Shown here: piece by piece, positions 2,370-62,054 of the stretch
Position numbering within the stretch: position 1 is the first letter of the stretch
Layout of the letters: each line of letters starts with the position of its first letter
Source: Patescibacteria group bacterium
GTDB lineage: Bacteria; Patescibacteriota; Minisyncoccia; Minisyncoccales; UBA5738
Assembly (NCBI GenBank): GCA_034678605.1
Contig: JAXDBQ010000039.1
Coordinates: forward strand, 1,172 to 65,171
DNA length: 64,000 nucleotides
Direction of reading: 5' to 3'
Program-made: the position numbers and the translations under genes
The notes under the pieces: model-generated
Told to the model about the DNA's origin: nothing
Seen by the model: the letters and a program-made list of their open reading frames with translations, nothing else
The model's database searches: none

Positions 2370-2545
2370 AAATTCGAAGCACGAATAGAACGGCTTGGCC
2401 GTTTCTGAAAATTTTAATTAATTTTCAGAACGAAATTCGAAACAATATCGAATTTTCAAAATTCAAATGTTTGAAACGGAATTTCGTTTTTGAGTTTTGA
2501 AAATTTGAAAATTCGGATTTGTTTCGATATTCGAAATTCGATATT
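2370..2545. repeat. Word-hairpin family A (cgaatat/cgaaatt words), copy A1
   Basis: It begins aattcgaagcacgaata. Arms cgaaattcgaaacaatatcgaattttcaaaattcaaatg and ttgaaaatttgaaaattcggatttgtttcgatattcgaaattcg are complementary. It contains extra mini-hairpins (aacggcttggccgtt; ttctgaaaatt..aattttcagaa). Confidence 0.8.
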
Positions 2546-2589
2546 AGCAAATAAAAATTATTCTGATAAAATCATTTTATCACAAAATT

Positions 2590-3612
2590 ATGTTTTATAT
2601 TTGTTCAAAATGCAAGCGGCGGTGGCAGTATCCGCTGGCCGAATGCCCGCATTGCTTGGTGGCGTTGGAAAAAATGGAAAGCAAAACCGCCAAAGTAGCC
2701 GGCGCGGTGAAAGTGGCGATCCCGACCTTGTTCCACCCAAATGTGCCGTATCATGTTTTGCTGCTGGAAGACGAAAATGGCAATTTGTGGGGGCACAAGT
2801 CGGAAAGGGAATACAAGGCCGGGGATATCATCGATTTCGAACCGAATCCCGAGGCCGTGGCGATCTGGCGGGTTAAATTTGATGTTGCCGAGGCGATAAA
2901 CAAGACCTTGGAACTTATCGGCAGCATCAAGATCGGCCAAAACCCAAAGATCGCGGTGTTGCCGACCTTGGTAAAACCCAGCCATGCCTATTTTCGCGAC
3001 AATACCTCGCCGGAGTTTTTGGCTGCGGTTTTGGAAGTTTTGCTGGCCAAGGGCGCAAAAAAGGAGAATATTATCGTTGCCGGCCAAAGTTTTGACGATA
3101 TGCCCGCGGCCGCGATCGCGCAAAAATCCGGACTGTTGGACGCGTGCCAAAAATTCGGCATTCTTCCGCGCGATTTGAGCGCCGGCGAATTTGAAAAAAC
3201 AAACAAATTCGAGATCGCCAAAGACATTCTCGGCGCGGATCTGATCGTGAATTTGGCCATGGAAAAGATCGGCCAGGCGGGCGCGGCGGCAAATTTGTTG
3301 AGAATTTTGAAAAAAGAAAATTATTTGGGGCAAAAATATCTTTCGTCGGAAGCCCAGATCATCGCGGAGCTGGCGCCGATATTAAAAGAAAAATTGGTCG
3401 TTATCGGCGAAGCCGAAAACGTCCAGCGTTCGAACAAATTAACTTGTTTTGCCGGATTGGTTTTGGCGTCAAAGTCGCCGGTTGATGTTGACCGAGTGTT
3501 TAACGAAATCGCGCAGTCGTTTAAAATGCCGGAAACCATTAAGAACGCCCAGTTGCCTCGCGTTGCCGGCCGGAGCATTAGGGAAGTGCAGTATCAAGCC
3601 GAAATCTTTTAA
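2590..3612 (+). CDS. Fusion protein: N-terminal DUF35-like Zn-ribbon/OB fold plus C-terminal DUF362-like domain
   Basis: The N-terminus has CSKC...CPHC followed by a beta-rich segment (VPYHVLLLEDENGNLWGH..AGDIIDFE), typical of thiolase-associated DUF35. The remainder (KIAVLPTLVKPSHAYFRDNTSPEFLAAVLEVLLAKGAKKENIIVAGQSF) resembles DUF362. Confidence 0.55.
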   Translation: MFYICSKCKRRWQYPLAECPHCLVALEKMESKTAKVAGAVKVAIPTLFHPNVPYHVLLLEDENGNLWGHKSEREYKAGDIIDFEPNPEAVAIWRVKFDVAEAINKTLELIGSIKIGQNPKIAVLPTLVKPSHAYFRDNTSPEFLAAVLEVLLAKGAKKENIIVAGQSFDDMPAAAIAQKSGLLDACQKFGILPRDLSAGEFEKTNKFEIAKDILGADLIVNLAMEKIGQAGAAANLLRILKKENYLGQKYLSSEAQIIAELAPILKEKLVVIGEAENVQRSNKLTCFAGLVLASKSPVDVDRVFNEIAQSFKMPETIKNAQLPRVAGRSIREVQYQAEIF

Positions 3613-3761
3613 AAAATATCGAATATCGAATATCGAAATTCGAAACAATATCGAATTTTCAAAATTCAAATGCTTGAAACGGAATTCCGTTTTAAATATT
3701 TGAAAATTATAATTTAGAATTTGTTTTGATATTCGAAATTCGGATTTCGAATTTGATAATT
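3613..3761. repeat. Word-hairpin family A, copy A2
   Basis: It fills the whole spacer between 3612 and 3762. Sequence runs atcgaatatcgaatatcgaaattcgaaacaatatcgaattttcaaaattcaaatg ... tttgttttgatattcgaaattcggatttcgaatttg. Confidence 0.8.
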
Positions 3762-4511
3762 ATGGGTAAACAATTTGAAAACAAGGTAGTGCTGGTGACC
3801 GGGTCATCGCAGGGGATCGGCAAGGCGATTGCGGTTAAGTTCGCGGGGTTGGGCGCCAAAATCGCGCTCAACGATATTTCGTTCCAAGAAGAGACTCTCA
3901 AAAAGACAAAAGAAGAAATTGCCGCGCTGGGCGCGGAGGCGGAATATTTCATCGCCGATGTTTCAAAATACGAAGACGTGGAAAAAATGATGGCCGCGGT
4001 TGAACAAAAATTCGGCCGTTTGGATATTTTAGTTAACAGCGCCGGAATTACCAAAGACAGAACTTTGGCCAAAATGACCGTGGAAGAATGGCAAAAAGTG
4101 ATTGACGTGAATTTAACCAGCGTTTTTAATTGTTCGAAATTGGCGTTGCCGATGATAATCGCCAATCAGGGGAATATCGTGAGTATTTCGTCGTTTTCGG
4201 CGTTGCGCGGTAATTTCGGCCAAACGAATTATGACGCGGCCAAGGCCGGCATAATCGGTTTCACTAAAACCTTGTCAAAAGAAGTGGGCAAATTTGGCGT
4301 GCGCGTCAACGCGGTGGCGCCCGGATTTATCGAATCAAAAATGACCGACGCGATGCCCGAAGAAGTGAAAACGATGGTTAAAAAATTAATTTCGCTGGGT
4401 CGCACCGGCAAGCCCGAAGAAGTGGCGGCCGTGATTGCGTTTTTGGCTTCCGATGAGGCAAGTTATATCACGGGCAATGTGGTGAATATCGATGGCGGCT
4501 TGTGGCTGTAG
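3762..4511 (+). CDS. fabG: 3-oxoacyl-[acyl-carrier-protein]/acyl-CoA reductase, SDR family (FabG-like)
   Basis: TGSSQGIGKAIA glycine-rich loop, NSAG, and Y..AK (NYDAAKAG) catalytic motif. ATG at 3762; the track start at 3726 lies inside repeat A2. Confidence 0.9.
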   Translation: MGKQFENKVVLVTGSSQGIGKAIAVKFAGLGAKIALNDISFQEETLKKTKEEIAALGAEAEYFIADVSKYEDVEKMMAAVEQKFGRLDILVNSAGITKDRTLAKMTVEEWQKVIDVNLTSVFNCSKLALPMIIANQGNIVSISSFSALRGNFGQTNYDAAKAGIIGFTKTLSKEVGKFGVRVNAVAPGFIESKMTDAMPEEVKTMVKKLISLGRTGKPEEVAAVIAFLASDEASYITGNVVNIDGGLWL

Positions 4512-4547
4512 AAATGTAGAGTGTAAAGCGAAAAGTGTAAAGCGAAA

Positions 4548-5765: not shown

Positions 5766-5866
5766 AAATGGTATAATCAATTTGCCGGCGGTTGCGTTGC
5801 CGTTTTTTTCGTGGTAAAAACGAATTTGATTGAGCCAAAAGTTAAAGTGAAAAGTTTTTAAAATTC

Positions 5867-8439: not shown

Positions 8440-8444
8440 AAAAT

Positions 8445-9107
8445 ATGAACAGGGCAGTATCGTTTATTTCTTGGATATTGTTGGATTGGTTTTTTCGATT
8501 GTTTGTCGTAAAAGAGATCCGCGGCAAGGAAAATTTTTCCAAAAAAAAGAATTACATTCTGGCGGCCAACCACGTGAGCCATTTGGACTGGCTGATCGGC
8601 TGCTATTTGTGCGTGCCGCGCAAATACACGTTCATCGGCCAAGTGGACAAAATCAAAGGGATCAAAGGAATGTTGCGCGATCTGATGTATTGGACCGGCG
8701 AGACGATTCGGGTGGACCGGCGCGACCCGGCTTCAAAAGAAAAAGCCGCGGCTAAAGCGATTGATTTTTTGAAAAAAGGGTATAATCTGTTTTTATTTCC
8801 CGAAGGCACGCGCTCGCGCGACGGTAAATTGCAAATGTTTCGCCGGGGAGTGGGCAAATTATATTTGGAAACCGGCGTGCCGGTTTTGCCGGTGGTTTTT
8901 TGGGGCACGCGCCAAATGATGCCGCCGGGCCAAAAAATAAAGCTGGATCGCTCGGCGATCGCGGTTATCGGCAAACCGCTTGAATTTTCTGATTTGCGGG
9001 CGCAAGCCAAAGGAATTGATAAAAACTCGGACAAATATTTGCGGCTTTGCGAAACCATCGCCAAAAAGGTTGAGGAGGAAGTGAGCGCCTTGCTGGCCGC
9101 AAATTAA
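8445..9107 (+). CDS. plsC: 1-acyl-sn-glycerol-3-phosphate acyltransferase family (PlsC-like), paralog 1
   Basis: NHVSHLDW (HX4D), FPEGTRSRDG and VPVLPV blocks. Confidence 0.8.
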   Translation: MNRAVSFISWILLDWFFRLFVVKEIRGKENFSKKKNYILAANHVSHLDWLIGCYLCVPRKYTFIGQVDKIKGIKGMLRDLMYWTGETIRVDRRDPASKEKAAAKAIDFLKKGYNLFLFPEGTRSRDGKLQMFRRGVGKLYLETGVPVLPVVFWGTRQMMPPGQKIKLDRSAIAVIGKPLEFSDLRAQAKGIDKNSDKYLRLCETIAKKVEEEVSALLAAN

Positions 9108-9227
9108 AAACTAAAATCTAAAAAGTAAAAACGACAATCTTAAATTAAAAAATAAAAAATCAATTAAACGATTTTAAATTTTAAATTTTCGTTTTTAATT
9201 TTTCATTTTTACTTTTTAAATTGAAAG
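9108..9227. repeat. Word-hairpin family F (aaaatt/aaaacg words)
   Basis: aaaactaaaatctaaaaagtaaaaacgacaatcttaaattaaaaaa ... ttttaaattttaaattttcgtttttaatttttcatttttacttttt. Confidence 0.7.
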
Positions 9228-9890
9228 ATGAATACCATTGTTTCTACCATTTCGAAATTGATATTGGGGGCGCCGATAAGAATGATGCTGATCAAAGAGA
9301 TCCGCGGCAAGGAAAACATCCCGGCCGGCGGTTTTATCTTGGCATCCAATCATTTGAGCCATTCGGATTGGTTTATGAGCGGTTATATCTGCGCGCCCAA
9401 AAAATTCGCGTTTATCGGCCAAGTGGATCAATACAATACGGGTTTCAACGCGATTTGGCGGCGGTTGATCTATTGGTGGGGCAGCACCATTCCCATTGAC
9501 CGCAAAAGCGGCGAATCAAAAAAACAAGCCATGGAAAGAGCGGTGAAAATGCTCAAAGACGGGTATCGCGTAATTATTTATCCCGAAGGCGGCCGGGCCT
9601 ATGACGGCGTGATGCGCCAATTCAAGGCCGGCGTGGCAATATTGCATTTGGAAAGCGGAGCGCCGATTTTGCCGGTGGCGTTTAGCGGAACGCGGGAGAT
9701 CATGCCGCCTCATGGAAAAATCAAATTAAAAAAAACCGTGCGGATTAATATCGGCAAACCGTTGGATTTTTCCCGGGAAAGGCAAATTGCCGCCAAACTG
9801 GATAAGGATTCCCATGCCTATCACGGGCTTTGCGCCGACGTGGCCAAAAAAGTGGAGGACGAAGTCCGGCTCCTCGCTGATGAAATTTAA
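9228..9890 (+). CDS. plsC: 1-acyl-sn-glycerol-3-phosphate acyltransferase family (PlsC-like), paralog 2
   Basis: NHLSHSDW, YPEGGRAYDG, APILPV. It has the same length (220 aa) and layout as paralog 1. Confidence 0.8.
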   Translation: MNTIVSTISKLILGAPIRMMLIKEIRGKENIPAGGFILASNHLSHSDWFMSGYICAPKKFAFIGQVDQYNTGFNAIWRRLIYWWGSTIPIDRKSGESKKQAMERAVKMLKDGYRVIIYPEGGRAYDGVMRQFKAGVAILHLESGAPILPVAFSGTREIMPPHGKIKLKKTVRINIGKPLDFSRERQIAAKLDKDSHAYHGLCADVAKKVEDEVRLLADEI

Positions 9891-10032
9891 ATTCGAATAT
9901 CGAATATCGAAATCCGAAACAATATCGAATATCGAAATTTAAAATTTTCAAAACAAAAAAAGAATTTCGTTTTGAACATTTGAAAATTCGAATTTGTTTC
10001 GATATTCGATATTCGTGCTTCGGATTTTGCTT
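9891..10032. repeat. Word-hairpin family A, copy A3
   Basis: aaattcgaatatcgaatatcgaaatccgaaacaatatcgaatatcgaaattt ... gaaaattcgaatttgtttcgatattcgatattcgtgcttcggattt. Confidence 0.8.
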
Positions 10033-11568
10033 ATGATGAAGATCGATAAAATTCTTATTGCCAACCGGGGAGAGATCGCATTGCGGATTATCCGCACTTG
10101 CCGCGAGATGGGCATTAAGACCGCGGCGCTTTGCCCGCGGCCGGGGATGGAGCACAATTTTTTGGAAACGGCATTGGCCGACGAGTTTTATTATCTGGAT
10201 GCCGACGGATCGGCCGGTTATTTGGATAAGGAAAAGATCATCGGGATCGCCAAAAAATGCAAGGCAAGCGCAATCCATCCCGGCTATGGTTTTTTGGCCG
10301 AAAACTGGCAGTTTGCGCTGGCTTGTGAAAAGAACCGGATAAAATTCATCGGGCCGCATTTTAAGACCTTGCGCGCTTTGCAGGACAAGGTCGAGGCCAA
10401 AAAGATCGCCAAAAAAGTGGGCATTCCCACGGTGCCGGCCAGCGACCAATCAATCAAAAGCAAAAAAGATCTGATCAAGTGGGCCCAGCGGATCAAGCCG
10501 CCGTTTATCATCAAAGCCCAGCGCGGCGGCGGCGGCATGGGGATTCGCGTGGTCAATGGCCAGATGAATTATGAAGAAATGATGTCGCTTACGTTGGGAG
10601 TCCAGCGCCAGATATCCGGCGCGTTTTCCGACGCGGATTTCTTTTTGGAAAAATATCTGCCCGAAGTCAAGCATATTGAATTTCAAATTTTGGGCGACGG
10701 CAAAAACGCGGTGCATTTGGGAGAGCGGGAATGTTCGATCCAACGCCGGTTTCAAAAATTGGTGGAAGAATCGCCGTCGGCCGCCTTGGACGCCGATTTG
10801 CGCGCCAAGATGGGCGGCTGGGCGGTGAAAATTGCCGAATATCTGCGTTATGAGGGCGCGGCCACGGTGGAATTTTTGCTGGACATTGACAAAAATTTTT
10901 ATTTCATGGAAGTTAATCCGCGCATTCAAGTGGAGCATCCGGTGACCGAAGCCGTGACGGGAATTGATATCGTGGAGCAACAAATCAAAATCGCGCGGGG
11001 AGAGCGATTGGCGTTTGGGCAGGAAAGCGTTTTTCAAAACGGATGGGCCATCGAGGTGCGCGTGAACGCCGAGGATTCGCGAAAAAACTTCATTCCTTCG
11101 CCGGGAATCGTGGCCAAATACATTCCGCCGCAAGGCCAGGGAGTGTTTACGCACAGCTTTTTGCAGGATGGCCAAGTTGTCTATCCTTATTTTGACTCGC
11201 TGCTGGCCAAGATCATCGCCTATGGCAAAGATCGCGATTCGGCGATCAAAAAATTGAAGCGCGCTTTGGGCGAAACCTCGATCGACGGCGTGGCCACCAC
11301 GATTCCGTTTTTCAAGCTTTTATTGGAAAAGGAAGAATTTTTACAAGGTAATTTTTTCACCAATTACATCGAAAAAAGCGGCATTATCCGCGAATTGATG
11401 CTGGCGCCCTATTGCAAACCGGCGGTTTGCGAGCATAAGGATTTGGAAGAACAAGCCGTGGCCGATATCGCGCACGCGATTTATCGAGAAATCAAAAACA
11501 ACTTGCCTGCGGCCAACGGCAACGGGGTTTCCAAGTGGGTGCTGGCCGACCGAATCGCCGAAGAATAA
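10033..11568 (+). CDS. accC: Biotin carboxylase subunit of an acyl-CoA/acetyl-CoA carboxylase
   Basis: KILIANRGEIALRIIRTCREMGI, HPGYGFLAEN, GGGGMGIRV, MEVNPRIQVEHPVTE. ATG at 10033; the track start at 9994 lies in repeat A3. Confidence 0.9.
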   Translation: MMKIDKILIANRGEIALRIIRTCREMGIKTAALCPRPGMEHNFLETALADEFYYLDADGSAGYLDKEKIIGIAKKCKASAIHPGYGFLAENWQFALACEKNRIKFIGPHFKTLRALQDKVEAKKIAKKVGIPTVPASDQSIKSKKDLIKWAQRIKPPFIIKAQRGGGGMGIRVVNGQMNYEEMMSLTLGVQRQISGAFSDADFFLEKYLPEVKHIEFQILGDGKNAVHLGERECSIQRRFQKLVEESPSAALDADLRAKMGGWAVKIAEYLRYEGAATVEFLLDIDKNFYFMEVNPRIQVEHPVTEAVTGIDIVEQQIKIARGERLAFGQESVFQNGWAIEVRVNAEDSRKNFIPSPGIVAKYIPPQGQGVFTHSFLQDGQVVYPYFDSLLAKIIAYGKDRDSAIKKLKRALGETSIDGVATTIPFFKLLLEKEEFLQGNFFTNYIEKSGIIRELMLAPYCKPAVCEHKDLEEQAVADIAHAIYREIKNNLPAANGNGVSKWVLADRIAEE

Positions 11569-11714
11569 AATCCGAAGCACGAAATCCGAATATCGAAACA
11601 AATTCGAATTTTCAAATTTTTAAAAGTTCAAAACGAAATTCATTTTTTGTTTTGAAAATTTTAATTTTTGATATTCGATATTGTTTCGGATTTCGATATT
11701 CGATATTCGAATTT
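11569..11714. repeat. Word-hairpin family A, copy A4
   Basis: aaatccgaagcacgaaatccgaatatcgaaacaaattcgaattttcaaattt ... gaaaattttaatttttgatattcgatattgtttcggatttcgatattcgatattcg. Confidence 0.8.
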
Positions 11715-12095
11715 ATGAAATTCAGCTTTACTAATCGCAACAAGGACTATCAAATCGAGATCGCCGACCAGGGGGAGGGGGTTAAGATTTCGGTTAACGG
11801 CAAGAACTTTTTTTACGGCGCGCAAGCCGTCCAGGATGTTCCGGCCGTGGCGCAAGCCGCCATTCCCAAGCGCAATCTTTCCAAAAAGGAGGTACGCGCG
11901 GTTTTGGCCGGCACGATCTCGGAAATCAGCGTGGCCGCCGGCGACATCGTGAAAACCGGCCAAAAACTTTTGACCCTCTCGGCCATGAAAATGGAAAACG
12001 AAATTTTGGCCGAAGTTGACGGCAAAGTCAAAGAAATAAAAGTTGCCCCCGGCCAAAAAGTCGCCGAAGGCGCCATTTTGATCATCTTGGCATAA
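11715..12095 (+). CDS. accB: Biotin carboxyl carrier / biotinyl-lipoyl domain protein
   Basis: The C-terminus reads LLTLSAMKMENEILAEVDGKVKEIKVAPGQKVAEGAILIIL, with the AMKM biotinylation motif. Confidence 0.8.
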   Translation: MKFSFTNRNKDYQIEIADQGEGVKISVNGKNFFYGAQAVQDVPAVAQAAIPKRNLSKKEVRAVLAGTISEISVAAGDIVKTGQKLLTLSAMKMENEILAEVDGKVKEIKVAPGQKVAEGAILIILA

Positions 12096-12115
12096 AAAAT
12101 AATTTTGCAATCGTC

Positions 12116-14711: not shown

Positions 14712-14725
14712 TAATATTGAGATTT

Positions 14726-16166: not shown

Positions 16167-16187
16167 TTTGTGGTAAAATGGAAGGGT

Positions 16188-16730: not shown

Positions 16731-16824
16731 AAAAGTTAAAAGCGTAAAGCGAAAAGCGTAAAGCAAGAATGCGGCTTTGTATTTTTACTTTGCGTTTTGC
16801 ACTTTTAGTTTTGCGCTTAATATT
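16731..16824. repeat. Word-hairpin family B (gtaaagcg/gcaaagcg words), full hairpin
   Basis: aaaagcgtaaagcgaaaagcgtaaagcaagaatgcgg | ctttgtatttttactttgcgttttgcacttttagttttgcgc. Confidence 0.8.
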
Positions 16825-26823: not shown

Positions 26824-26933
26824 GATTTTAAAGTCAAAATTCAAAAGTCTGCGCCGGAGGCGCATCCGTCCTTTGGCGGAAAAAGTCAAAAGTTAAAGTT
26901 AAAATCCTGAAAGTTTTGAAGTTCAGCTTTGAA
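26824..26933. repeat. Word-hairpin family D carrying a GC twin-mini-hairpin insert (G2)
   Basis: The arms ttttaaagtcaaaattcaaaagtc ... aaaagtcaaaagttaaagttaaaatcc are direct repeats rather than complementary. The insert tgcgccggaggcgca tccgtcctttggcgga is at 26848-26881. Confidence 0.7.
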
Positions 26934-30896: not shown

Positions 30897-30990
30897 TTTT
30901 AGCGCAAAGCGCAAAGCGTAAAGCGCAAAGTAAAAATGCGGATTTTGAATTTTACTTTTAGTTTTTCGCTTTAAGTTTTACGCTTTTACT
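30897..30990. repeat. Word-hairpin family B, full hairpin
   Basis: agcgcaaagcgcaaagcgtaaagcgcaaagtaaaaatgcgg | attttgaattttacttttagtttttcgctttaagttttacgctttt. Confidence 0.8.
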
Positions 30991-31644: not shown

Positions 31645-31853
31645 AATGTCAAAATTTCCCCGTCTTCGTCAAATGCTATGGTGGGCAAGCAATTTCCAAT
31701 TTCAAAATAAATATCAAAATGATTGAATCCAAGATAAATTTGTGCTAATCTTAAAAATTGGAATCACTGATCGCATCCCGTATTTCGTGTTCACAGATTT
31801 TAGTTTTGAGTTGAAGTTTTTCGTTCTTGGTTTTTACATTTTACATAATTTTC

Positions 31854-32549: not shown

Positions 32550-32697
32550 GATTTAAAATCACGATAAATCCCAAATCCCAAGCGCTAAATCCCAAATAAA
32601 TTCAAATATCAAAATTTTAAATTAGAAGTTTTCGTTTTGATTTTTGATGTTTGGATTTGTTTAGGATTTAGAATTTAGGACTTAGATTTTTTAAGGT
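32550..32697. repeat. Word-hairpin family C, full hairpin
   Basis: aaatcccaaatcccaagcgctaaatcccaaataaattcaaatatcaaaattt ... ttttgatttttgatgtttggatttgtttaggatttagaatttaggacttagattt. Confidence 0.8.
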
Positions 32698-35235: not shown

Positions 35236-35297
35236 ATAAAAACCAATTTATAATTAAGTTATTGAAAAGTGTCCTTCCGATAATTATGACATTTTTT

Positions 35298-35445
35298 AAA
35301 TTCGAAGCACGAATTTCGAATATCAAAACAAATTCGAATTCTCAAATTTTCAAATGTTCAAAACAAAATTTCTTTTTTTGTTTTGAAAATTTTAAATTTC
35401 GATATTCGACATTGTTTCGGATTTCGATATTCGATATTTGAATTT
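35298..35445. repeat. Word-hairpin family A, copy A5
   Basis: aaattcgaagcacgaatttcgaatatcaaaacaaattcgaattctcaaattttcaaatg ... gaaaattttaaatttcgatattcgacattgtttcggatttcgatattcgatatttg. Confidence 0.8.
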
Positions 35446-35452
35446 TTTTCCG

Positions 35453-37726: not shown

Positions 37727-37856
37727 CCCGATAAATTAAAAATTAAAAACGAAAAAGGAAAAACGAAAGTTAAAATTTTAAAAATTTAAATCGCGGATTT
37801 TTCGGTTTTAAATTTTTCATTGTCGTTTTAAAATTTTCATTTTTAGTTTTAAAATA
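37727..37856. repeat. Word-hairpin family F
   Basis: aaattaaaaattaaaaacgaaaaaggaaaaacgaaagttaaaatttt ... ttttaaatttttcattgtcgttttaaaattttcatttttagttttaa. Confidence 0.7.
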
Positions 37857-37880
37857 AAAAAGCCGCCTTGGGCGGCTTTT
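37857..37880. terminator. Bidirectional intrinsic terminator (tRNA-Leu on +, hsp20 on -)
   Basis: aaaagccgcc ttgg gcggctttt, a perfect stem flanked by A- and T-runs. Confidence 0.8.
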
Positions 37881-38562: not shown

Positions 38563-38612
38563 AGAAGTGTAAAGTTAAAAGCGTAAAGCGTAAAGTAGAA
38601 ATGCGGGAGCGG
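38563..38612. repeat. Word family B, left arm of a split hairpin
   Basis: gtgtaaagttaaaagcgtaaagcgtaaagtagaaatgcggg is complementary to the arm at 38985-39058. Confidence 0.75.
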
Positions 38613-38620
38613 GAAGTGGA

Positions 38621-38980
38621 TTAACCTTTTTGCTTTCTTAATGTTAAAACGCTTGAACCCAATATATTAGCGATTTCTTTGGTTTCTTTAAGCAATTGAT
38701 CTATTTTGTCGAAATTTATTTTATTAGAATCTTTTAATAAGTTGATCCAAAAAATACTTTCATTCGCCGATTTCAAAGCGTAGCAGAAAAAATTGGTGAA
38801 ATCTTTTTTTGTTGAGCCGGCTTGGGCTTCGGTAATGTTCGCGCCAATACTTGTCGCGCTTCTCAAAAGTTGTCGAGCAATTATTTGGGTCGATAAGTCT
38901 TTTTTATCGGCGGAATCAATAAATTTGATAATTTCCAGCGCATATAAATAAGCGCGTTGCTTGACTTCAATGCGAGGCAT
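38621..38980 (-). CDS. Four-helix-bundle protein of the 23S rRNA intervening-sequence protein family
   Basis: AYLYALEIIKFI ... IARQLLRSATSIGANITEAQAGSTKKDFTNFFCYALKSANESIFWINLL is the canonical family signature. Confidence 0.8.
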   Translation of the reverse strand: MPRIEVKQRAYLYALEIIKFIDSADKKDLSTQIIARQLLRSATSIGANITEAQAGSTKKDFTNFFCYALKSANESIFWINLLKDSNKINFDKIDQLLKETKEIANILGSSVLTLRKQKG

Positions 38981-38984
38981 TTTG

Positions 38985-39058
38985 TTTTTAATTTTAAACT
39001 TGCATTTTTCGCATTCTGCATTCTTACTTTACGCTTTTCGCTTTACGTTTTGCGCTTA
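38985..39058. repeat. Word family B, right arm of the split hairpin
   Basis: tgcatttttcgcattctgcattcttactttacgcttttcgctttacgttttgcgcttact. Confidence 0.75.
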
Positions 39059-39866
39059 CTCCGCAGACGCTTTTTTGGCGCAAAAGCCATTGAAATTGAA
39101 TGTAAAGGGAAATTGCCATTAACAAAATTATCGCCAAAGGAACCAGCAAAAACGAAAGGTCGCTCTCGCTCTTAATTATAGAAAAATTATAAAGGCCGTG
39201 CAAGCAAGAGCAGATGGCAAAGCCGGCCAATAGGGTGGCGAACTTTTTTTGGGGCCGGCAAAAGGCCTTGGCCATGTAAAAACCGATGATCCCCGAGCAA
39301 AGCGTGTGCAACAAAATGGCGCTCATCGAGCGGAAAAGCGAAATGAAAATCAGGTCGGCGGTGTTGCCGGGCAAAAGCAACACCCCGCCGATTAATTTTT
39401 GTTGCACTTCGGGAAGCAGGAATAGTAAATTTTCCACGGCCGCGAATCCCAGCGCCGCAGTGATCATGTAGATCACAAAATCCACCGGCTCGTCCAGATG
39501 CCGGTTTTGTTCGGCGGCTTGTTCCTTCACCCAAACCGCGAAATATTTGGCCAGTTCCTCGATCAGCGCGATGGCCACGATGTTGGTGAAAAGCATGGCC
39601 ATAATCCCGGGAAGGCCAAGCGCGCCAATGGCATTGATCAAAAACATTTCAAACGCCACCGCCGGCGCGGTCATCAGCGCCCCCAGGCAAAACACCCAGA
39701 TAATCTGTTTTTTTGGTTCCGGATGCCGGTCGCGGCGCAGATAGAACAGCAACCACAAAAGGCAGGGGAGCACCCCGGCCGCCAGATAGACCGCCAGCGA
39801 ACCGGCGGTTTGCGAAACATTGGCCAGCGCCATCAGCGCCGCGTCGAAAGAGAAATTATCCATCAA
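39024..39866 (-). CDS. prsW: PrsW-family intramembrane metalloprotease
   Basis: Multi-TM protein with ALIEELAKYFAVW (EExxK) and later AAVENLLF and HTLCSG-type motifs. Confidence 0.7.
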   Translation of the reverse strand: MMDNFSFDAALMALANVSQTAGSLAVYLAAGVLPCLLWLLFYLRRDRHPEPKKQIIWVFCLGALMTAPAVAFEMFLINAIGALGLPGIMAMLFTNIVAIALIEELAKYFAVWVKEQAAEQNRHLDEPVDFVIYMITAALGFAAVENLLFLLPEVQQKLIGGVLLLPGNTADLIFISLFRSMSAILLHTLCSGIIGFYMAKAFCRPQKKFATLLAGFAICSCLHGLYNFSIIKSESDLSFLLVPLAIILLMAISLYIQFQWLLRQKSVCGVSAKRKAKSVK

Positions 39867-46494: not shown

Positions 46495-46544
46495 AAGTTA
46501 AAGCGAAAAGCGTAAAGTAAAATGCAGAAGTTGAATTTTGCGTT

Positions 46545-51282: not shown

Positions 51283-51378
51283 TATAAAATCGTAAAGCGA
51301 AAAGTGTAAAGTGAAAAACAAGATGCGGTATCCGTATTTTTGTTTTGCGCTTTGCGCTTTAAGTTTTTCGCTAAAAAC
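51283..51378. repeat. Word-hairpin family B in the divergent elp3/ybaB spacer
   Basis: aaatcgtaaagcgaaaagtgtaaagtgaaaaacaagatgcgg | tatccgtatttttgttttgcgctttgcgctttaagtttttcgc. Confidence 0.8.
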
Positions 51379-51636: not shown

Positions 51637-51646
51637 GCCAAAACCG

Positions 51647-51825
51647 CAAATCCGAAGCACGAATATCGAAATTCGAAACAAATTCCGCGCCCGAGGCGCG
51701 TCCGCTTTCAGCGGAAAATTTTCAAAATTTAAATTTTCAAAACAAAATGCGCATTTGTTTTTAACATTTGAAAATTGAGATTTTGATATTGTTTCGGATT
51801 TCGACATTCGATATTTAAATATTTC
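51647..51825. repeat. Word-hairpin family A, copy A6, carrying a GC twin-mini-hairpin insert (G2)
   Basis: aaatccgaagcacgaatatcgaaattcgaaacaaatt [ccgcgcccgaggcgcg tccgctttcagcgga, 51685-51716] aaattttcaaaatttaaatttt ... gattttgatattgtttcggatttcgacattcgatattt. Confidence 0.8.
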
Positions 51826-51831: not shown

Positions 51832-52359
51832 ATGAACATAAAAAAGATTGTGGTGGGGTCGTTGCAAACCAATTGTTATTTGCTGCTTGACGGCGGGGAA
51901 TTGGTGATTGTCGATCCGGGGGATGAAGCGCAAAAGATAATCGGCGAAATTCAAAAAATCGGCGCCGCGGTTAAATTCATCGTCAATACGCACCGGCATT
52001 TTGATCATATCGGCGCCAACCGCGAATTGGAAAAGGAATTTGGCGTGAGGAAGGTTGATCTAAAAGACGGCGATGTTGTATCGATCGGGCAAGTACGATT
52101 GCGCGCAGTGGCAACTCCGGGCCACACGCCCGAAGGGATTTGTTTGTTCGGAAAAGATTTCGCGATTACGGGCGACACTTTGTTTGCCGATGGTTTTGGC
52201 CGCACTGATTTGGCCGGCGGATCAAGCGCGGATATGGCCGTGTCGCTGGCGAAATTGGATAATTTAATTCCCGAGGGTGGCATGGTTTATCCGGGCCACG
52301 GCGATGTTTTTGTTTACAAAAAAGGCATGGCATTGGAGTGGCTCGATTATTTGGAATAA
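51832..52359 (+). CDS. Metallo-beta-lactamase fold hydrolase (glyoxalase II-like)
   Basis: TNCYLL..., NTHRHFDHIG, TPGHTPEG, GDTLF..., YPGHG. Confidence 0.8.
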   Translation: MNIKKIVVGSLQTNCYLLLDGGELVIVDPGDEAQKIIGEIQKIGAAVKFIVNTHRHFDHIGANRELEKEFGVRKVDLKDGDVVSIGQVRLRAVATPGHTPEGICLFGKDFAITGDTLFADGFGRTDLAGGSSADMAVSLAKLDNLIPEGGMVYPGHGDVFVYKKGMALEWLDYLE

Positions 52360-52519
52360 ATTCTAAGCACCAAATCGCAAATCCCCTGCCTTTGGCGAGG
52401 CTCGCCTCCGGCGGCAAACAATATCAAAATTCAAAATTTTAAAATTCAAAACAAAAATCAAAAAGAATTTTGTTTTGACATTTGTATTTTGATATTTGAA
52501 ATTGTTTAGGGTTTAGATT
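52360..52519. repeat. Word-hairpin family C carrying a G-family insert
   Basis: The arms are ttctaagcaccaaatcgcaaatcc ... gtttagggtttagattttgggatttagg. The insert cctgcctttggcgaggctcgcctccggcggc is at 52385-52415. Confidence 0.75.
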
Positions 52520-53584
52520 TTGGGATTTAGGATTTCAATTGAAATTGTGGATTTGAGCAAATTGGAAACGATATTGGCGGGGGAGCCGGCCTACCGGGCC
52601 AAGCAGGCGCGGGAGGCGGTTTTTGGTTCATTGATCGATGATTGGAGCCAGGCGCGGGAATTGCCTGAAAATTTGCGCCAAAAATTGGCGGCAGAGTGTT
52701 CGCTTGATATCAACGCCGAAATTTTCCATTCAAAAGACGGCGCTTCGGCCAAAGCGCTGATAACTTTGGCCGACGGAGCAAAGATCGAAACCGTGCTGAT
52801 GCGGCATGGCAGCCGCCCGCGGGCGAGCCTCGCCTTTCAGGCGGGCCGGAATACGGTTTGCGTGTCGTCGCAGGTCGGCTGCCCGATGGGGTGCGCTTTT
52901 TGCGCCACCGGCAAAATGGGTTTCAAGCGGAATTTATCGGCCGATGAAATTGCGGAACAGGTTTTGCTTTTCGCGCGGATTTTGAAAAAAGAAGGCCGGC
53001 GGGTTGACAACGTGGTTTTTATGGGAATGGGCGAGCCGTTCTTGAATTATGCCAATGTGATGGCCGCGGTTAAAATTTTAAACGACCAGCGGGGGTTGAA
53101 TATCGGCGGCCGCCATATTTCGATCTCCACTTGCGGAGTTGTCGAGGGAATCGAAAAGCTTGTCGATGAACCGATCCAAGTTAATTTGGCAATTTCGCTG
53201 CACGCGCCCAACGATGCTTTGCGTTCGAAGCTGATGCCGATCAACGCCAAATATCCGTTGAAAAAACCGGTCGAAACCATCGCGCATTATATCGAAAGAA
53301 CCAACCGGAGGGTGATGCTTGAATACATAATGATCGACAAGGTCAATGATTCGGATGATTGCGCCCGGGAACTGGCCGACCTGGTGAAAACGCGATTATC
53401 GCCCAAATTGGCGTTCGTCAACCTGATCCGCTACAACCCGACCGGAGAATTTTTGGCGTCGCCGCCGGAACGGGTAAAAGCTTTCAAGGATATTTTGATG
53501 AAAGCCGGTGTGGAAACCACTGAACGTTATCGCTTCGGCCGCCAGATCAAGGCCGCTTGCGGCCAATTGGCGGCCAAAAGTTAA
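52520..53584 (+). CDS. rlmN: 23S rRNA/tRNA (adenine-C2)-methyltransferase RlmN (radical SAM)
   Basis: YRAKQ..., CVSSQVGCPMGCAFCATG, GMGEP, SLHAP. The start is uncertain (TTG 52520 lies in repeat C; GTG 52547 is plausible). It contains an in-frame G-element at 52813-52849. Confidence 0.9.
   Translation: MGFRISIEIVDLSKLETILAGEPAYRAKQAREAVFGSLIDDWSQARELPENLRQKLAAECSLDINAEIFHSKDGASAKALITLADGAKIETVLMRHGSRPRASLAFQAGRNTVCVSSQVGCPMGCAFCATGKMGFKRNLSADEIAEQVLLFARILKKEGRRVDNVVFMGMGEPFLNYANVMAAVKILNDQRGLNIGGRHISISTCGVVEGIEKLVDEPIQVNLAISLHAPNDALRSKLMPINAKYPLKKPVETIAHYIERTNRRVMLEYIMIDKVNDSDDCARELADLVKTRLSPKLAFVNLIRYNPTGEFLASPPERVKAFKDILMKAGVETTERYRFGRQIKAACGQLAAKS
52813..52849. repeat. G-family GC mini-palindrome inside the rlmN CDS
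   Basis: ccgcccgc g ggcgagcctcgcc tttcag gcgggccgg. It encodes ..SRPRASLAFQAGR.. between the conserved LMRH and NTVCVSSQVGC blocks. Confidence 0.8.
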
Positions 53585-53673
53585 GCGAAAAGCGCAAAGA
53601 GCAAAGCGTAAAACAAGAATTCGAAATGCGTATTTTGCTTTAAGTTTTTCGCTTTTCGCTTTACACTTCCATT
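53585..53673. repeat. Word-hairpin family B, full hairpin
   Basis: gcgaaaagcgcaaagagcaaagcgtaaaacaagaattcg | aaatgcgtattttgctttaagtttttcgcttttcgctttacac. Confidence 0.8.
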
Positions 53674-53895: not shown

Positions 53896-53978
53896 ATGCT
53901 TGATTTATGATTTAAGATTTATGATTTTTAAATTCGAGTTTGAATTATTCTTAAATCCTAAATCCTAAATCATTATTC
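53896..53978. repeat. Word-hairpin family C variant
   Basis: gaatgcttgatttatgatttaagatttatgatttttaaatt ... gaattattcttaaatcctaaatcctaaatcattattc. Confidence 0.7.
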
Positions 53979-53990
53979 TTGAATTTTATT

Positions 53991-54557
53991 ATGGATGATA
54001 TTTTATTAGTCGATGAAGATAATAATCCGACAGGGGCGGGGGAGAAAATGGATGTTCATCGGCGCGGAATTTTGCATCGCGCGTTTTCGATTTTGGTTTA
54101 TAATTCCAAAAAAGAAATGTTGTTGCAACGGCGCGCCATAATCAAGTATCATTGCCCGGGGCAGTGGAGCAACGCTTGCTGTTCGCATCCGGCGCCCGGC
54201 GCTCATTTATTGGTCGCGGCCCGAAAGCGGTTGAAAGAAGAAATGGGAATCGATATTCCGGTTAAAGAAACCGGCGTTGAGTTTATCTATAAAGTGAAAG
54301 TGGGCGACTTGACCGAATATGAATATGATTATTTGCTTTATGGTCAATTCGACGGCCAGCCTAAAATCAATCCCCAAGAGGCCGATGCGTGGAAATGGAT
54401 GGCTTTTGGCGATTTGCGGGCCGATATGAAAGAAAATCCCGAGGCCTATACGCCGTGGTTTCGCTTGATCGTGAGCCAAGGCGATAGCGACGCCGAGCAA
54501 ATTCCGGTGCCGCGGCTGGAAAAATACGAGATTAAAAAATTGGCAACCTACAAATAA
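53991..54557 (+). CDS. idi: Isopentenyl-diphosphate delta-isomerase, type 1 (Nudix)
   Basis: LVDEDNNPTG...HRRGILHRAFSILVYNSKKEMLLQRRAIIKYHCPGQWSNACCSHP ... E..Y.Y (Cys and Glu catalytic context). Confidence 0.85.
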   Translation: MDDILLVDEDNNPTGAGEKMDVHRRGILHRAFSILVYNSKKEMLLQRRAIIKYHCPGQWSNACCSHPAPGAHLLVAARKRLKEEMGIDIPVKETGVEFIYKVKVGDLTEYEYDYLLYGQFDGQPKINPQEADAWKWMAFGDLRADMKENPEAYTPWFRLIVSQGDSDAEQIPVPRLEKYEIKKLATYK

Positions 54558-54611
54558 AGCGTAAAGTTTAAAGCGCAAAGCGCAAAGTGAAAATACAAAA
54601 GCGCAGGCAAA

Positions 54612-56614: not shown

Positions 56615-56618
56615 GGAA

Positions 56619-56780: not shown

Positions 56781-57105
56781 AGTTAGCACGCGCATTGAGC
56801 CCCATGGTTTGTCTTTGGACGATTTCAAAAAAGGGCGAAGCCCCATTGTGCCGGAAATTAAAAGCACGGGCTTGAAATTGGAATAACCAAAGCGATTTGT
56901 CGATTTATAAAACAAAAATTAAACTTTGACCGTCGCGAAAAATCCTCACAGCGGTTTTTTTTGATCTTGTTTGAAAAACTAAACAAATAGAAAAAATTTG
57001 ACATTTTGTGGCGGGGGGCGGTAATTTCACTTTATCCGGCGGTTTTGGTAGAATTAATTATTGGTATTTTTACTTTGCGCTTTGCGCTTTAAGTTTTTCA
57101 CTTTT

Positions 57106-57699: not shown

Positions 57700-57779
57700 T
57701 GTAGGGGCGAAACTATGTTTTCGCCCGCATTCGCATTTTGAAATCGCGGGTTCGGGGCGATTACATAGAATCGCCCCTA
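57700..57779. repeat. R1 REP-like element, copy d (inverted orientation)
   Basis: gtaggggcgaaactatgttttcgccc ... ggggcgattacatagaatcgcccctac. It supplies the last codons and stop (GTRRGDSM*) of the PAP2 gene. Confidence 0.85.
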
Positions 57780-58420: not shown

Positions 58421-58519
58421 GAATTATGAAACGCTTTGAATTTGTATTTTTGGGGTCGTTCCCCCGTGTAATCGCGGGGGTGCGACCCCGATAATAGTAT
58501 TAGAAGAGTTTCGTAATTC
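58421..58519. repeat. R2 MITE-like element, copy 4 (inverted orientation) with 12-bp TIRs
   Basis: TIRs are gaattatgaaac / gtttcgtaattc. The core is ggggtcgttcccccgtgtaatcgcgggggtgcgacccc. Confidence 0.8.
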
Positions 58520-59705: not shown

Positions 59706-60320
59706 ATGGTGATGGAATATAATTCGAAAATCCATCATCGGAGGTCGATTCGCGCCCAAGGATATGATTATTCGCGGGATAGCGCGTATTTTGTGACGAT
59801 ATGCGCGCAGGATATGAAGTGCGTGTTTGGGAATATCGAAAGAGGGGAGATGAGATTGAATGGGGCGGGAGAGATGGTTGATTTTTGGTGGCGGGAATTA
59901 CCCAATAAGTTCCAAAATATCCGGCTTGACGAATTTACGGTGATGCCGAACCATTTTCACGGGATTTTGGTTGTAGGGGCGATTCTATGTAATCGCCCTG
60001 AGCCCGTAATTTTGAATTCGGATTTTGATGCGGGCGAAAACATAGTTTCGCCCCTACGGAAAATACAAAATGCAAATGCAAAAATTCCAAATACATACGC
60101 CGGTTTAGGACAATATGTTTCTTGGTTTAAACGAATGACGACCAATGAATATATCCGCAATGTTAAAATCGGCAAATTCCCGCCGTTCGAAAAATCGGTT
60201 TGGCAGAGGAATTATTGGGAGCATATTATTCGCGACGATGATGAGTTGGACCGCATCCGCGGATATATTGTCGATAATCCGTCAAATTGGGAAATCGATG
60301 AATTTTATTCGCAGAAATAA
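59706..60320 (+). CDS. REP-associated tyrosine transposase-like protein (RAYT; IS200/IS605 Y1 HUH superfamily, COG1943)
   Basis: YFVTICAQD, the HUH motif in MPNHFHGILVV, and the C-terminal catalytic-Tyr region RNYWEHIIRDDDELDRIRGYIVDNP. It contains a complete R1 element in frame. Confidence 0.8.
   Translation: MVMEYNSKIHHRRSIRAQGYDYSRDSAYFVTICAQDMKCVFGNIERGEMRLNGAGEMVDFWWRELPNKFQNIRLDEFTVMPNHFHGILVVGAILCNRPEPVILNSDFDAGENIVSPLRKIQNANAKIPNTYAGLGQYVSWFKRMTTNEYIRNVKIGKFPPFEKSVWQRNYWEHIIRDDDELDRIRGYIVDNPSNWEIDEFYSQK
59982..60056. repeat. R1 REP-like element, copy e, inside the RAYT-like CDS
   Basis: gtaggggcgattctatgtaatcgccc ... gggcgaaaacatagtttcgcccctac, followed by the tail ggaaaatacaaaatgcaaatgc. 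It translates to VGAILCNRPEPVILNSDFDAGENIVSPLRKIQNANA. Confidence 0.85.
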
Positions 60321-60749: not shown

Positions 60750-61250
60750 ATGCCCATACATTTAAATTACCAGGGGACGACATGCAAAAAGTGCGGGGCG
60801 GAATTCATTGCTCACCGGGTCGGCTGTTCTTGCCCGCGGTGCCAAACCGCGGCCGCGGAAGTTTTTGATTTCGTGCCGGCAACTATCGCTACGATGAAAG
60901 ACCACAAGCAGATGTACGGCAATTATTTTCCGGACAGCTGGTTTTCGGGATCAGCGGCCGACATCGTCCAGGGAATAATTTTTGAATTGTTCGACAATTT
61001 CGAGATCGAAAAGCCCAAAGATATGCTGGCGTTCATCGTGGAACAGCTGGCGCAGGTGGAATGGGAGGAAGGTCAGGAACATTTGGCCGGCCAAACCGAG
61101 CAGATCGCTTTGGAAGTTTTCGAGATATACAAAACCGATCCGGATTTCCGCGGCGACGTGCTCAAGGAAAAACCGCTCAATCCGAAACTGGAAAATTTGA
61201 ATCCAAAATCGGATACCCCGCTTGATATTGACAACAACATTGGTTTTTAA
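60750..61250 (+). CDS. Hypothetical protein with an N-terminal Zn-ribbon (CKKC...CPRC)
   Basis: It starts 2 nt after the preceding stop. It has a four-Cys ribbon and an acidic helical remainder. Confidence 0.4.
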   Translation: MPIHLNYQGTTCKKCGAEFIAHRVGCSCPRCQTAAAEVFDFVPATIATMKDHKQMYGNYFPDSWFSGSAADIVQGIIFELFDNFEIEKPKDMLAFIVEQLAQVEWEEGQEHLAGQTEQIALEVFEIYKTDPDFRGDVLKEKPLNPKLENLNPKSDTPLDIDNNIGF

Positions 61251-61346
61251 TAGGCGGGATAATTTTTGTCGTTTTCTTTTTGCCTTGAAACGAGGGCGTT
61301 TTTTGTATAATATCAAGGATAAGCGAATTTGAGGTGCGAGTTTGAC

Positions 61347-61397
61347 GAGGTCAGACCTCGGCGATTACGCCGAGGACTGACCTCAAATGCGAAATTC
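61347..61397. repeat. R3 nested-hairpin element, copy 2 (same orientation as copy 1)
   Basis: gaggtcag a cctcggcg atta cgccgagg a ctgacctc aaatgcgaaattc. Confidence 0.8.
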
Positions 61398-61424
61398 AAA
61401 TTCAAGTTAAATCAAAAATCCAAA

Positions 61425-61931
61425 ATGCGAAATTCGGAAAACATAATTAAGGGGAGGTTGGCGGAGAGCTTGGTGGAGCAGATGCTGAAGGCAAGCGGTT
61501 GCCGGGTTTACCGTTTGGGCGCCGCCGCGGTGCTGGAAACGATTGTCCAGCTGGAAGATGAATTTTCAAAAGATAGCGCGGCGGGCAAAAAGGTTGCTTC
61601 AATTCCGGATTTTATGGTGATGGGCATGCGCGAAAGGCCGGTGTTCGTGGAGGTGAAATTCCGCGCCGAACCCGAGTCGCTGGAAGAGGAACTGCTGTTG
61701 GAAAAAGACGCGCCCGAGGGTTTTTGGGGCGCCAAGATCGTGTTGGTGACCAACAAGCAAAAACCATATTTTCGCGTGCTTGAGCCGCCCTATTTTTCCA
61801 AGGAAGAGCGCGACGGCTGGCCCATTCCGGTGGCCAACTGGAAGCCGCTGGAAAAGGATGTTGATTTGGGATGCGATGAAAAAATCATCAAAGAATTTGA
61901 AGAGCTGGTGGAGAAATATTACTCGAAATAA
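61425..61931 (+). CDS. Hypothetical protein, possibly PD-(D/E)XK nuclease fold
   Basis: IPDFMVMGMRERPVFVEVKFR resembles a D...E-x-K core. ATG at 61425; the longer call runs through repeat R3. Confidence 0.4.
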   Translation: MRNSENIIKGRLAESLVEQMLKASGCRVYRLGAAAVLETIVQLEDEFSKDSAAGKKVASIPDFMVMGMRERPVFVEVKFRAEPESLEEELLLEKDAPEGFWGAKIVLVTNKQKPYFRVLEPPYFSKEERDGWPIPVANWKPLEKDVDLGCDEKIIKEFEELVEKYYSK

Positions 61932-62054
61932 TTTTTAATTTTCAATTTTAAATTTTTAAACAAGATCTAATTTTTAAAATTTAAATATTAAAAATTGTTT
62001 ACAAATTAAAAATTACAAATTAAAAATTTTGGCAATAGGAAAGGTAAAAATTTT
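61932..62054. repeat. Word family F spacer (aaaatt/taaaaa words)
   Basis: ttttaattttcaattttaaatttttaaac ... tttttaaaatttaaatattaaaaattgtttacaaattaaaaattacaaattaaaaatttt. Confidence 0.6.

Follow-up and report, generated by a model that had tools for sequence, protein, structure and literature searches.

The 23S rRNA of Coxiella burnetii carries an intervening sequence (IVS), a selfish element of 428 nt with an inverted-repeat stem and a decaying S23p (PF05635) open reading frame (ORF); it contains two or three tandem GACAGAT heptamers, a number that varies between strains, and is excised by RNase III at the first heptamer (PMC4990558). Here we describe related structures in a stretch of 64,000 nucleotides (the window) of contig JAXDBQ010000039.1, from a member of the Patescibacteria (candidate phyla radiation) of the Paceibacteria/Minisyncoccales type. 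Many of its intergenic spacers hold AT-rich hairpins whose arms are arrays of 7-nt words, and one pair of arms encloses a PF05635 gene. These hairpins are best filed as elements of the IVS/S23p kind. What is new here is their occurrence in the intergenic spacers of a candidate-phyla genome, at very high density.

The likeness to the IVSs of Coxiella burnetii, Leptospira, Brucella and Haemophilus extends to several traits: terminal inverted repeats that form a stem, a PF05635 gene of ~120 aa in the loop, strain-variable tandem heptamers at the 5' side, AT-richness relative to the host, and being regarded as selfish and horizontally transferred. Decay of the ORF is another, seen here as in-frame stops in the PF05635 genes of L026 and L056 (L numbers denote loci used for comparison) and in Coxiella as part of reductive evolution (PMC4990558). 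Unlike IVSs, the window elements do not occupy helix 9, 25 or 45 of 23S rRNA but are found in the spacers of mRNAs and in one tRNA leader; most of them are ORF-less, and there are dozens of copies and several word families within 64 kb.

Other families of repeats invite comparison. Correia/NEMIS in Neisseria, ERIC/IRU in enterobacteria and RUP/BOX in pneumococcus are intergenic palindromic repeats that are transcribed into hairpins. Such repeats, and miniature inverted-repeat transposable elements (MITEs) in general, share with the heptamer hairpins a length of 100-190 nt, non-autonomy, inverted ends, high copy number, intergenic location, co-transcription and derivation by internal deletion from a longer gene-bearing element. 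Unlike in MITEs, the gene of the full-length element (PF05635) is no known transposase, no target-site duplication is definable, and the arms are arrays of 7-nt words instead of unique terminal repeats. Repetitive extragenic palindromes (REPs) are GC-rich palindromes of 20-40 nt with a GTAG-type head. Like REP, BIME and REPIN repeats, the heptamer hairpins are short, palindromic and intergenic, often within operons; a REP/REPIN-RAYT system was rejected because the hairpins, with a length of 90-190 nt, are rich in AT (GC 0.23-0.34), and because no RAYT was found within the window. Integron attC sites are imperfect palindromes of 57-141 nt that follow genes, and they too differ in sequence while sharing an architecture. 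We rejected them since the genes here are syntenic core genes, conserved R/L boxes are absent and the Pfam scans of the window gave no integrase. CRISPR and TIGR arrays were rejected as well: the arms are inverted, not tandem and interspaced, and no Cas or Nop-domain protein appeared in the Pfam scans.

Heptamer direct repeats near start codons have been described in Beggiatoaceae, cyanobacteria and Bacteroidetes, with a puzzling cross-phylum spread but not as hairpins; BOGUAY has one inverted case among 170 heptamer repeat sets. These TAACTGA-type repeats share with the window elements the 7-nt period, the intergenic location near start codons, the patchy cross-phylum distribution and the lack of a known transfer mechanism (PMC4679880). 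TAACTGA and STRR repeats are direct copies of one unit, whereas here the words are mixed, the arms are complementary and the loop may hold a gene. A simple heptanucleotide tandem repeat was rejected on the same grounds, the words being mixed and most arrays having a complementary partner arm.

The full-length element and its gene-less copies

Genes in the window were called with a codon-usage model and then checked against Pfam. Almost all are on the plus strand, and four are tRNA genes; these tRNAs were the sole matches of Rfam 15 at gathering score over the whole window, which detected no rRNA and assigned the heptamer hairpins to no family. An earlier reading of the letters alone (the sequence-only reading) had sorted the hairpins into word families A to F, which we retain. 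All the positions that it listed do hold word-built arms, A-rich or T-rich, and the arms are indeed reverse complements built of short words. In one case it overlooked what lies between them: 38563 and 38985 had been taken for a B hairpin, and the arms are real, but they flank a PF05635 gene.

38563..39060, minus strand: full-length family B element (folding z -4.9), with the same architecture as L133 and L135
38621..38980, minus strand: PF05635 cargo gene, 119 aa (Pfam E 6.8e-22)

Read on the minus strand, the order is A-rich arm (39060-38981), intervening sequence protein (IVP) gene and T-rich arm (38620-38563), and the pairing score of the arms, 44, is the third best among 21 right arms. 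The product belongs to the PF05635 family, '23S rRNA intervening sequence protein', a four-helix bundle that is S23p/Avd-like. Its closest solved structure is PDB 2RLD (E 5e-13), deposited with five chains. Genes for a PrsW protease and Hsp20 are neighbours of the cargo gene. PF05635 is the commonest Pfam beside the reverse transcriptases of diversity-generating retroelements (DGRs) and resembles Avd (PMC10053308). The cargo protein shares its family with DGR Avd; unlike in a DGR, no reverse transcriptase, template repeat or variable repeat adjoins the window gene.

Homologues of the cargo protein are numerous (1671 in one search and >4000 close homologues in another), and all 13 of the other PF05635 homologues examined lie between heptamer-word inverted arms. 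A tblastn search of the loci with family A arms gave eight homologues (L010-L129), all of them armed and four with family A arms, and a ninth, weaker one between arms of CGTGAAT words (L015). A sample from the protein database added those of L133 and L135, which lie between B-type arms, and those of L144 and L147, which belong to a different subfamily and have TTCTAAT-type and AATTCCC-type arms. PF05635 genes flanked by family B arms are thus found again in unrelated contigs. Protein subfamily and arm family go together: A-arm proteins are 66-78 % identical to one another and B-arm proteins 68-76 %, and across the two groups the figure is 31-40 %.

Several observations support the view that the ORF-less hairpins are internal-deletion derivatives of the gene-bearing element. 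ORF-less B hairpins have AAAATGC(G/A) at the start of the loop, which is the start-codon context of the gene, and in the B hairpin at 30897 AAAATGC is followed by GATTTTGAATTTTA, with which the IVP gene of L133 ends (final codons and stop). In ORF-less A hairpins, CAAATGnnCAAAAC (CAAATG(A/T)(C/T)CAAAAC) is retained where A-type genes begin; no IVP remnants were found in the loops of ORF-less family A copies. Direct proof of principle for an ORF-deleted derivative is provided by L146, which has a 409-nt insert where L144 and L145 have 3 nt, the flanks being 98.3-99.0 % identical. The insert is 77-82 % identical to both ends of the adjacent gene-bearing element and is without codons ~4-100. A further feature of these Celaenobacter-like loci is a direct repeat of ~45 nt (AAGGTTAAATATGATTTTTTTAAGTAATTTC..TCCTG..AAA) that brackets both the gene-bearing element and the ORF-deleted copy, outside the heptamer arms (L144 1400-1445 and 1955-2005; L146 2660-2710 and 2990-3040).

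Each family is a dispersed repeat with a consensus of ~150 nt, a fixed orientation and conserved arm mismatches, contrary to the suggestion that the hairpins do not resemble MITEs or REPs. For family A, a covariance model (R1) run on the window and 99 loci gave 82 non-redundant copies, 106-241 nt long, with a GC content of 0.23-0.34 and termini AAATYCGAA...TTCGRATTT; the loop is part of the consensus, and the copies have arm mismatches in common. In the window the copies at 11569, 35298 and 51647 form one orientation class and those at 9891, 3613 and 2370 the other. The left arm at 9891 scores 128-130 against the reverse-complemented right arms of 11569 and 35298, and 66 against its own right arm. 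Many family A arms contain the word TTGGTCA, which we take to be the cyanobacterial STRR2 unit. Although the families were said to differ completely in sequence, A and C use one arm grammar (AAATyCn, AAGCrCn, AAATCCn, AAAyAAA) and are sub-families; the family A model also matches the C hairpins at 32550 and 52360.

The spread of these repeats is wide. An exact 19-mer from a family A arm is present in >120 metagenome contigs of 34-67 % GC from many environments, and in most of them the whole hairpin is seen; viral contigs gave only 3 matches, no sign of a phage vector. Other heptamer-word families occur on the contigs that bear family A: in 715 kb, tracts of self-match number 205 at lag 7, 16 at lag 6 and 35 at lag 8. 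A protein of L089, a contig of 369 kb, falls in the 90 % cluster of a protein of the Olavius algarvensis Delta-1 symbiont, so the host is Desulfobacterota-like, and the spacers of this contig are likewise occupied by heptamer arms. Heptamer copy number varies between orthologous copies (L025 and L060). The elements are a mobile or recently mobile class of repeats, the full form of which carries a PF05635 gene. A literature search on the arm sequences and on MITEs in candidate phyla yielded no description of intergenic heptamer-word hairpins, nor the sequences in print.

Relatives of the window were retrieved with the acyltransferase gene 9228-9890 as a query. Nine syntenic loci came from metagenome-assembled genomes of the same kind, at 42-74 % amino-acid identity, and the row of fatty-acid-synthesis genes is conserved across all nine (tblastn). 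Within this operon the elements show presence/absence polymorphism: the orthologous spacers of the relatives have another family, a solo arm or nothing. In L009, the most distant relative, the operon genes are 1-18 nt apart. An element that lands in such a spacer fills it from stop to start codon, and this explains the impression that spacers are filled end to end; elements of the window start at the stop codon and finish 0-12 nt ahead of the next start codon. Masked runs of N lie in or beside spacers of three relatives (L001 10770-10795, L002 10649-10742, L008 13380-13470), and those of L001 and L002 coincide with the spacer that holds a family A hairpin in the window, preventing comparison. 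Short-read (Logan) assemblies of the same organism (L140, L141 and L143, covering window 2511-3648 and 6745-8694) stop within hairpins, which shows that the repeats cause assemblies to fragment. In public annotations, genes close to hairpins seem to start at other codons, since exact-protein look-ups failed for three genes. In practice, the elements break short-read assemblies and give rise to false N-termini in gene calls.

The elements are located in transcribed regions. Family E arms (24168-24340) lie downstream of a promoter at 24120-24148 (TTGCCA-17-TGCTAAACT), so both arms are part of the pre-tRNA; conservation of this promoter extends to L003 and L006. The tRNA leader of L003 has a whole B hairpin in place of the E arms, and that of L006 has neither. 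The rRNA operon of L071 contains a family A hairpin between tRNA-Ile and tRNA-Ala and a second one between 23S and 5S rRNA; the elements are in the spacers of this operon, not inside the 23S gene. A solo CGTGAAT/CGAGTCA heptamer array is also found there just upstream of the 23S rRNA gene (L071 8560-8660), and no complementary arm was seen in the portion of the 23S-5S spacer that was read.

Origin and possible roles of the hairpins

We consider it probable that the hairpins are MITE-like, ORF-less derivatives of IVS-type selfish palindromic elements, residing in transcribed non-coding DNA. A full-length member would consist of a 5' arm of tandem 7-nt words, a PF05635 gene and a reverse-complement 3' arm, and most of the window copies would have lost the gene by internal deletion, as MITEs do when they arise from transposons. 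The landing sites would be stop-to-start gaps, tRNA leaders and rRNA-operon spacers and, elsewhere, 23S rRNA helices, in which the element is seen as an IVS. In the transcript, the arms may form an AU-rich stem of 30-60 bp, a presumed RNase III substrate. Cleavage by RNase III would remove or neutralise the insert, which would hence be tolerated in operons and beside tRNAs, and the copy number of the words would drift by 7-nt slippage. Processing by RNase III is suggested by analogy: the stem of the homologous Coxiella IVS is cut by this enzyme (PMC4990558), and the earlier idea of an RNase processing platform is plausible on that basis.

Several points weigh against this explanation. The gene is carried by only one of ~28 elements in the window, where neither a transposase, a reverse transcriptase or another known mobility gene nor an RNase III gene was found. 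Target-site duplication is not evident at 70 family A junctions; there is a possible duplication of TAAATA at the L146 insertion. In the orthologous pair of L002 and L008, 5 of 5 changed pairs stay paired, mostly as G-U and with one double change, which hints at some constraint on structure. In L142 (GCA_964551425.1, a strain 97.6 % identical to the window) there are 0 differences in 577 nt of three A hairpins, the D hairpin and a B arm, and the neighbouring genes differ by 3-12 %. Such identity would not be expected of neutral, functionless sequence.

The last two observations speak for the main rival, namely that the hairpins are domesticated RNA modules that benefit the host and are kept by selection, possibly as processing sites that split polycistronic transcripts, as 3' stabilisers or as U-rich leaders for Shine-Dalgarno-independent translation. 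The stop-to-start fit of the elements would suit such modules too. We nevertheless find this explanation unlikely. Divergence between the window and L142 is patchy, a gene-by-gene mosaic over 3499-12105 (FabA-NMO 0.07 %, biotin carboxylase 4.75 %, BCCP 12 %), and with this taken into account the empirical p for the conservation of the three A hairpins is only ~0.014. Sense RNA folds better than antisense RNA in 21 of 31 non-tied cases in co-directional contexts, but the bias is not significant (p = 0.078). In the 82 copies of family A, own arms fold at -38.4 and swapped arms at -37.6 kcal/mol (p = 0.41), and copies of either orientation are present in co-directional operons; these two results speak against structural selection at individual loci, one of the options raised by the sequence-only reading. 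Nor does the arm swap lend support to compensatory evolution within single loci. Moreover, the orthologous spacers of relatives are empty or hold another family, and L009 has no such element. A role at the DNA level is a good deal harder to credit, whether the arms are arrays of binding sites for a pentameric PF05635 protein (or some other protein) or attC-like hairpin or cruciform recombination sites that make genes exchangeable. The co-variation of arm family and protein subfamily could be cited in its favour, yet it is also expected from simple co-inheritance. The arms can enclose cargo (a tRNA, a gene, a 2.5-kb segment), and in the mosaic of L142 the longest identical blocks are centred on hairpins (9552-10070 and 11509-11755); however, the core genes stand in conserved synteny and are not cassettes, and the conserved boxes and integrase of attC systems are missing, as noted above.

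Growth in place, in which slippage multiplies 7-nt words and template switching makes the palindrome at each locus separately, takes up the slippage-driven generative mechanism that had been put forward and seems to us even less probable. Heptamer indels do separate orthologues (L025 and L060; Coxiella strains, PMC4990558), and in many bacteria the long simple repeats are most often heptanucleotides (Mrazek 2007, as cited in PMC4679880). Against this, copies in different loci and genomes have non-repetitive loop sequence and arm mismatches in common, the two arms of a copy are less alike than homologous arms of other copies, and the same family is found in unrelated genomes. The homology within families contradicts an in-place origin; slippage survives only as a source of drift in copy number. 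The suggestion that the hairpins are intrinsic transcription terminators or insulators is the least credible of all. Stem-loops placed after stop codons with a T-rich 3' arm do bring terminators to mind, but none of the hairpins is among the sites in 1-20000 that have the terminator pattern (GC-rich stem and T-run), and the number of these sites, 41, is not in excess over shuffles (34.8 +/- 7.1). Operons of the window end in terminators of the classical kind (near 940, 22925, 26205, 37863 and 56430). The hairpins occur within a conserved operon, the genes of which directly adjoin one another in L009, and one element lies between a promoter and its tRNA. A scan for promoter-like sites (42 against 27.5) was uninformative, as an excess is expected for AT-rich words.

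A more speculative suggestion can be made, about which we are ourselves doubtful. Arms and PF05635 protein together may represent a new cross-phylum class of mobile elements that move without a known transposase. The Avd-like pentameric protein might recognise arrays of 7-nt words, and the transposition intermediate might be a hairpin RNA excised by RNase III or a DNA hairpin, possibly with the participation of a reverse transcriptase of the host or of DGR type. If correct, classical 23S rRNA IVSs would be rare copies that landed in rRNA, and the thousands of orphan 'four helix bundle protein' genes would be autonomous members. On the reading that we consider probable, descent of the hairpins from IVS-type elements, the known IVSs would be no more than the conspicuous part of a mobile-element class that occupies the spacers of many uncultivated bacteria, supposedly streamlined candidate-phyla genomes included. 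That reading connects several old puzzles: the nature and origin of 23S rRNA intervening sequences, the function of PF05635 (S23p, 'four helix bundle'), a very large family of orphans, and the abundance of heptanucleotide repeats between bacterial genes. The elements probably shape the processing of operon transcripts.

The elements along the window

The curated gene list leaves 67 spacers, 54 of which are >=50 nt long. That nearly every spacer is filled by hairpins was an overstatement: word-built arms occur in ~27-29 of the 54, and a complete two-armed hairpin in 19. Word arms are missing from many spacers, such as those at 13655, 15149, 18880, 24452, 25546, 27833, 29120, 37083, 39864 and 42474; the window also has classical GC-stem/T-run terminators and ordinary spacers with a promoter. 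The word period, given as 6-8 nt, is 7 nt specifically. Self-match at lag 7 is 0.363 in spacers and 0.248 in coding DNA, with echoes at lags 14 and 21, and 28-nt windows with >=75 % lag identity number 110 for lag 7, 54 for lag 6 and 5 for lag 8.

The terminal inverted repeats are able to form a long stem, of 30-60 bp, and compared to dinucleotide shuffles most elements fold far better as RNA (z -3.2 to -7.0), in line with the structure first proposed for them. The B hairpin at 30897 (z -1.8) and the F element at 37727 (z -1.4) fold weakly, and the C element at 18376 has no fold because it is a single arm. Solo arms are found at 4512, 46495, 22893 and 18376. The first two had already been described as single, together with 54558 and 57060; the latter turn out to be partners that flank 2.5 kb. 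In the hairpins at 53896 and 61932 the polarity is opposite, the T-rich arm leading. Apart from the full-length element, the following were recorded (z and minimum free energy, MFE, refer to RNA folding, bits to R1).

2370..2552, minus strand: family A hairpin in a divergent spacer (R1 match 2420-2555(-), 105.6 bits; MFE -60.8, z -6.0)
2388-2405 and 2407-2429: extra small hairpins in the outer left part of the 2370 element
3612..3757, minus strand: family A hairpin that occupies the DUF362-to-SDR spacer from stop codon to start codon (140.2 bits; z -4.6; 92 % identity to 2431-2505 over 75 nt)
4519..4547: family B solo A-rich arm of GTAAAGCG words, immediately 5' of the CMAS start codon
7391..7492: family D hairpin of AAAGTCA words (z -3.7; inverted repeat I7)
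9100..9224: family F hairpin between two acyltransferase paralogues (52-nt arms, 81 % complementary; z -3.2)
9886..10030, minus strand: family A hairpin, inverted relative to 11565 (151 bits, minus strand; alignment score with 11569 236 as reverse complement, 79 forward)
11565..11717, plus strand: family A hairpin in the biotin carboxylase/BCCP spacer (156.1 bits; z -4.5)
16731..16824: family B hairpin in the spacer between a biotin ligase-like gene (16170-16730, Pfam) and a carboxyltransferase gene (z -3.6)
18376..18432: family C solo A-rich arm with no partner arm (MFE 0; word grammar as at 32573)
22885..22916: family E solo arm of GATGAG/AATGAG words, followed by a classical bidirectional terminator
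24010..24104: family B hairpin in the gap between the start of an HtrA-like gene (minus strand) and the tRNA promoter (z -3.4; an orthologous B hairpin is present in L003)
24168..24340, plus strand: family E arms 24168-24215 and 24292-24340 around tRNA-Arg(CCT) 24216-24289 (MFE -67.9, z -6.3)
26824..26933: family D-like element with a weak right arm (z -2.5)
30897..30990: family B hairpin (z -1.8)
31796..31844: solo T-rich word arm, 5' of gene 31854
32563..32693, plus strand: family C hairpin of AAATCCC words, matched by the family A model (56.8 bits; z -5.4)
35295..35448, plus strand: family A hairpin downstream of gyrA (151.8 bits; z -6.4)
37729..37862: family F element after tRNA-Leu, followed by a classical terminator at 37863-37884 (z -1.4, weak; 83 % direct match to the 9169 arm)
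46495..46525: family B solo or truncated arm that includes the AAAATGC loop motif
51283..51378: family B hairpin in a divergent spacer (z -5.1)
51645..51825, plus strand: family A hairpin with a nested GC-rich double mini-hairpin at 51685-51714 (141 bits)
52355..52538, plus strand: family C/A hairpin with a nested GC-rich module at 52383-52415 (z -7.0; 48.3 bits)
53580..53673: family B hairpin (z -2.8; inverted repeat I17)
53896..53990: opposite-polarity hairpin, a T-rich arm of GATTTAT words followed by AAATCCT words (z -3.2; own arm is the best partner)
54556..54600: family B A-rich arm, partner of 57062-57105 (own-arm score 62, best of 21 right arms)
57062..57105: family B T-rich arm, partner of 54556-54600 (89 % match to the 51329 arm)
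61929..62030: family F-like hairpin 5' of leuS, T-rich arm leading (49-nt arms, 84 % complementary; z -4.2)

The 2.5 kb between the split B arms at 54556 and 57062 comprise two genes, tRNA-Arg(CCG) and, adjoining the tRNA, an ORF-free stretch of ~450 nt (56600-57050). This stretch has long-range complementary ends (GCGAGGGGA...TCCCCTCGC) and no Rfam match even at E<=1.

The GC-rich double mini-hairpin named above is itself a recurrent module (GCGCCnnnGGCGC-TCCGyCtttGrCGGA-AAAA) that interrupts a single arm of a heptamer hairpin, in every case between two words. It is present in the window at 51685-51714, where the insertion is visible in the alignment of family A copies, at 52383-52415 and at 26849-26879, and also in L001 (~9870 and ~17480), L002 (~12320), L004 (~8090) and L005 (~4470 and ~8310). 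The module resembles a mobile element of even smaller size, with the arms as its target.

Other repeats and neighbouring features

A few features of the window are of another kind. At 12116-15148 there is a low-GC island (GC 0.39-0.41), unmatched in the relatives, where restriction-modification genes are grouped: they encode a HaeII-type endonuclease, a Vsr mismatch endonuclease and a C5 cytosine methylase that is joined to a RadC-like JAB domain. The FabA-NMO gene is preceded, at 5770-5817, by a conserved extended -10 box (tgTTATAAT) with a small GC hairpin and TTTTTCGTGGTAA after it. This arrangement is present in most of the syntenic relatives (L001 ~6580, L002 ~6560, L003 ~2470, L004 ~4700, L005 ~6590, L007 ~4690 and L008 ~6720), and box and hairpin are a candidate promoter with an attenuator or leader.

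A second repeat family, unrelated to the heptamer hairpins, is found at 48162-48297, 48946-49029, 57701-57780 and 59973-60057. It consists of paired GC-rich palindromes of 26 nt (GTAGGGGCGATTCTATGTAATCGCCC and its inverse) 28-38 nt apart, which are REPIN-like doublets with a GTAG head. The window has no RAYT gene to accompany this REPIN-like family (GTAGGGGCGATT...). A third repeat is a GC-rich hairpin of 38 nt, GGGGTCTAACCCCTGCG-ATTA-CGCAGGGGATAGACCCC, which together with its variants occurs at 28640-28677, 41427-41464, 58445-58496 and 61347-61384; at least two copies (41390-41512 and 61325-61403) are nested in a larger AT-rich inverted repeat.

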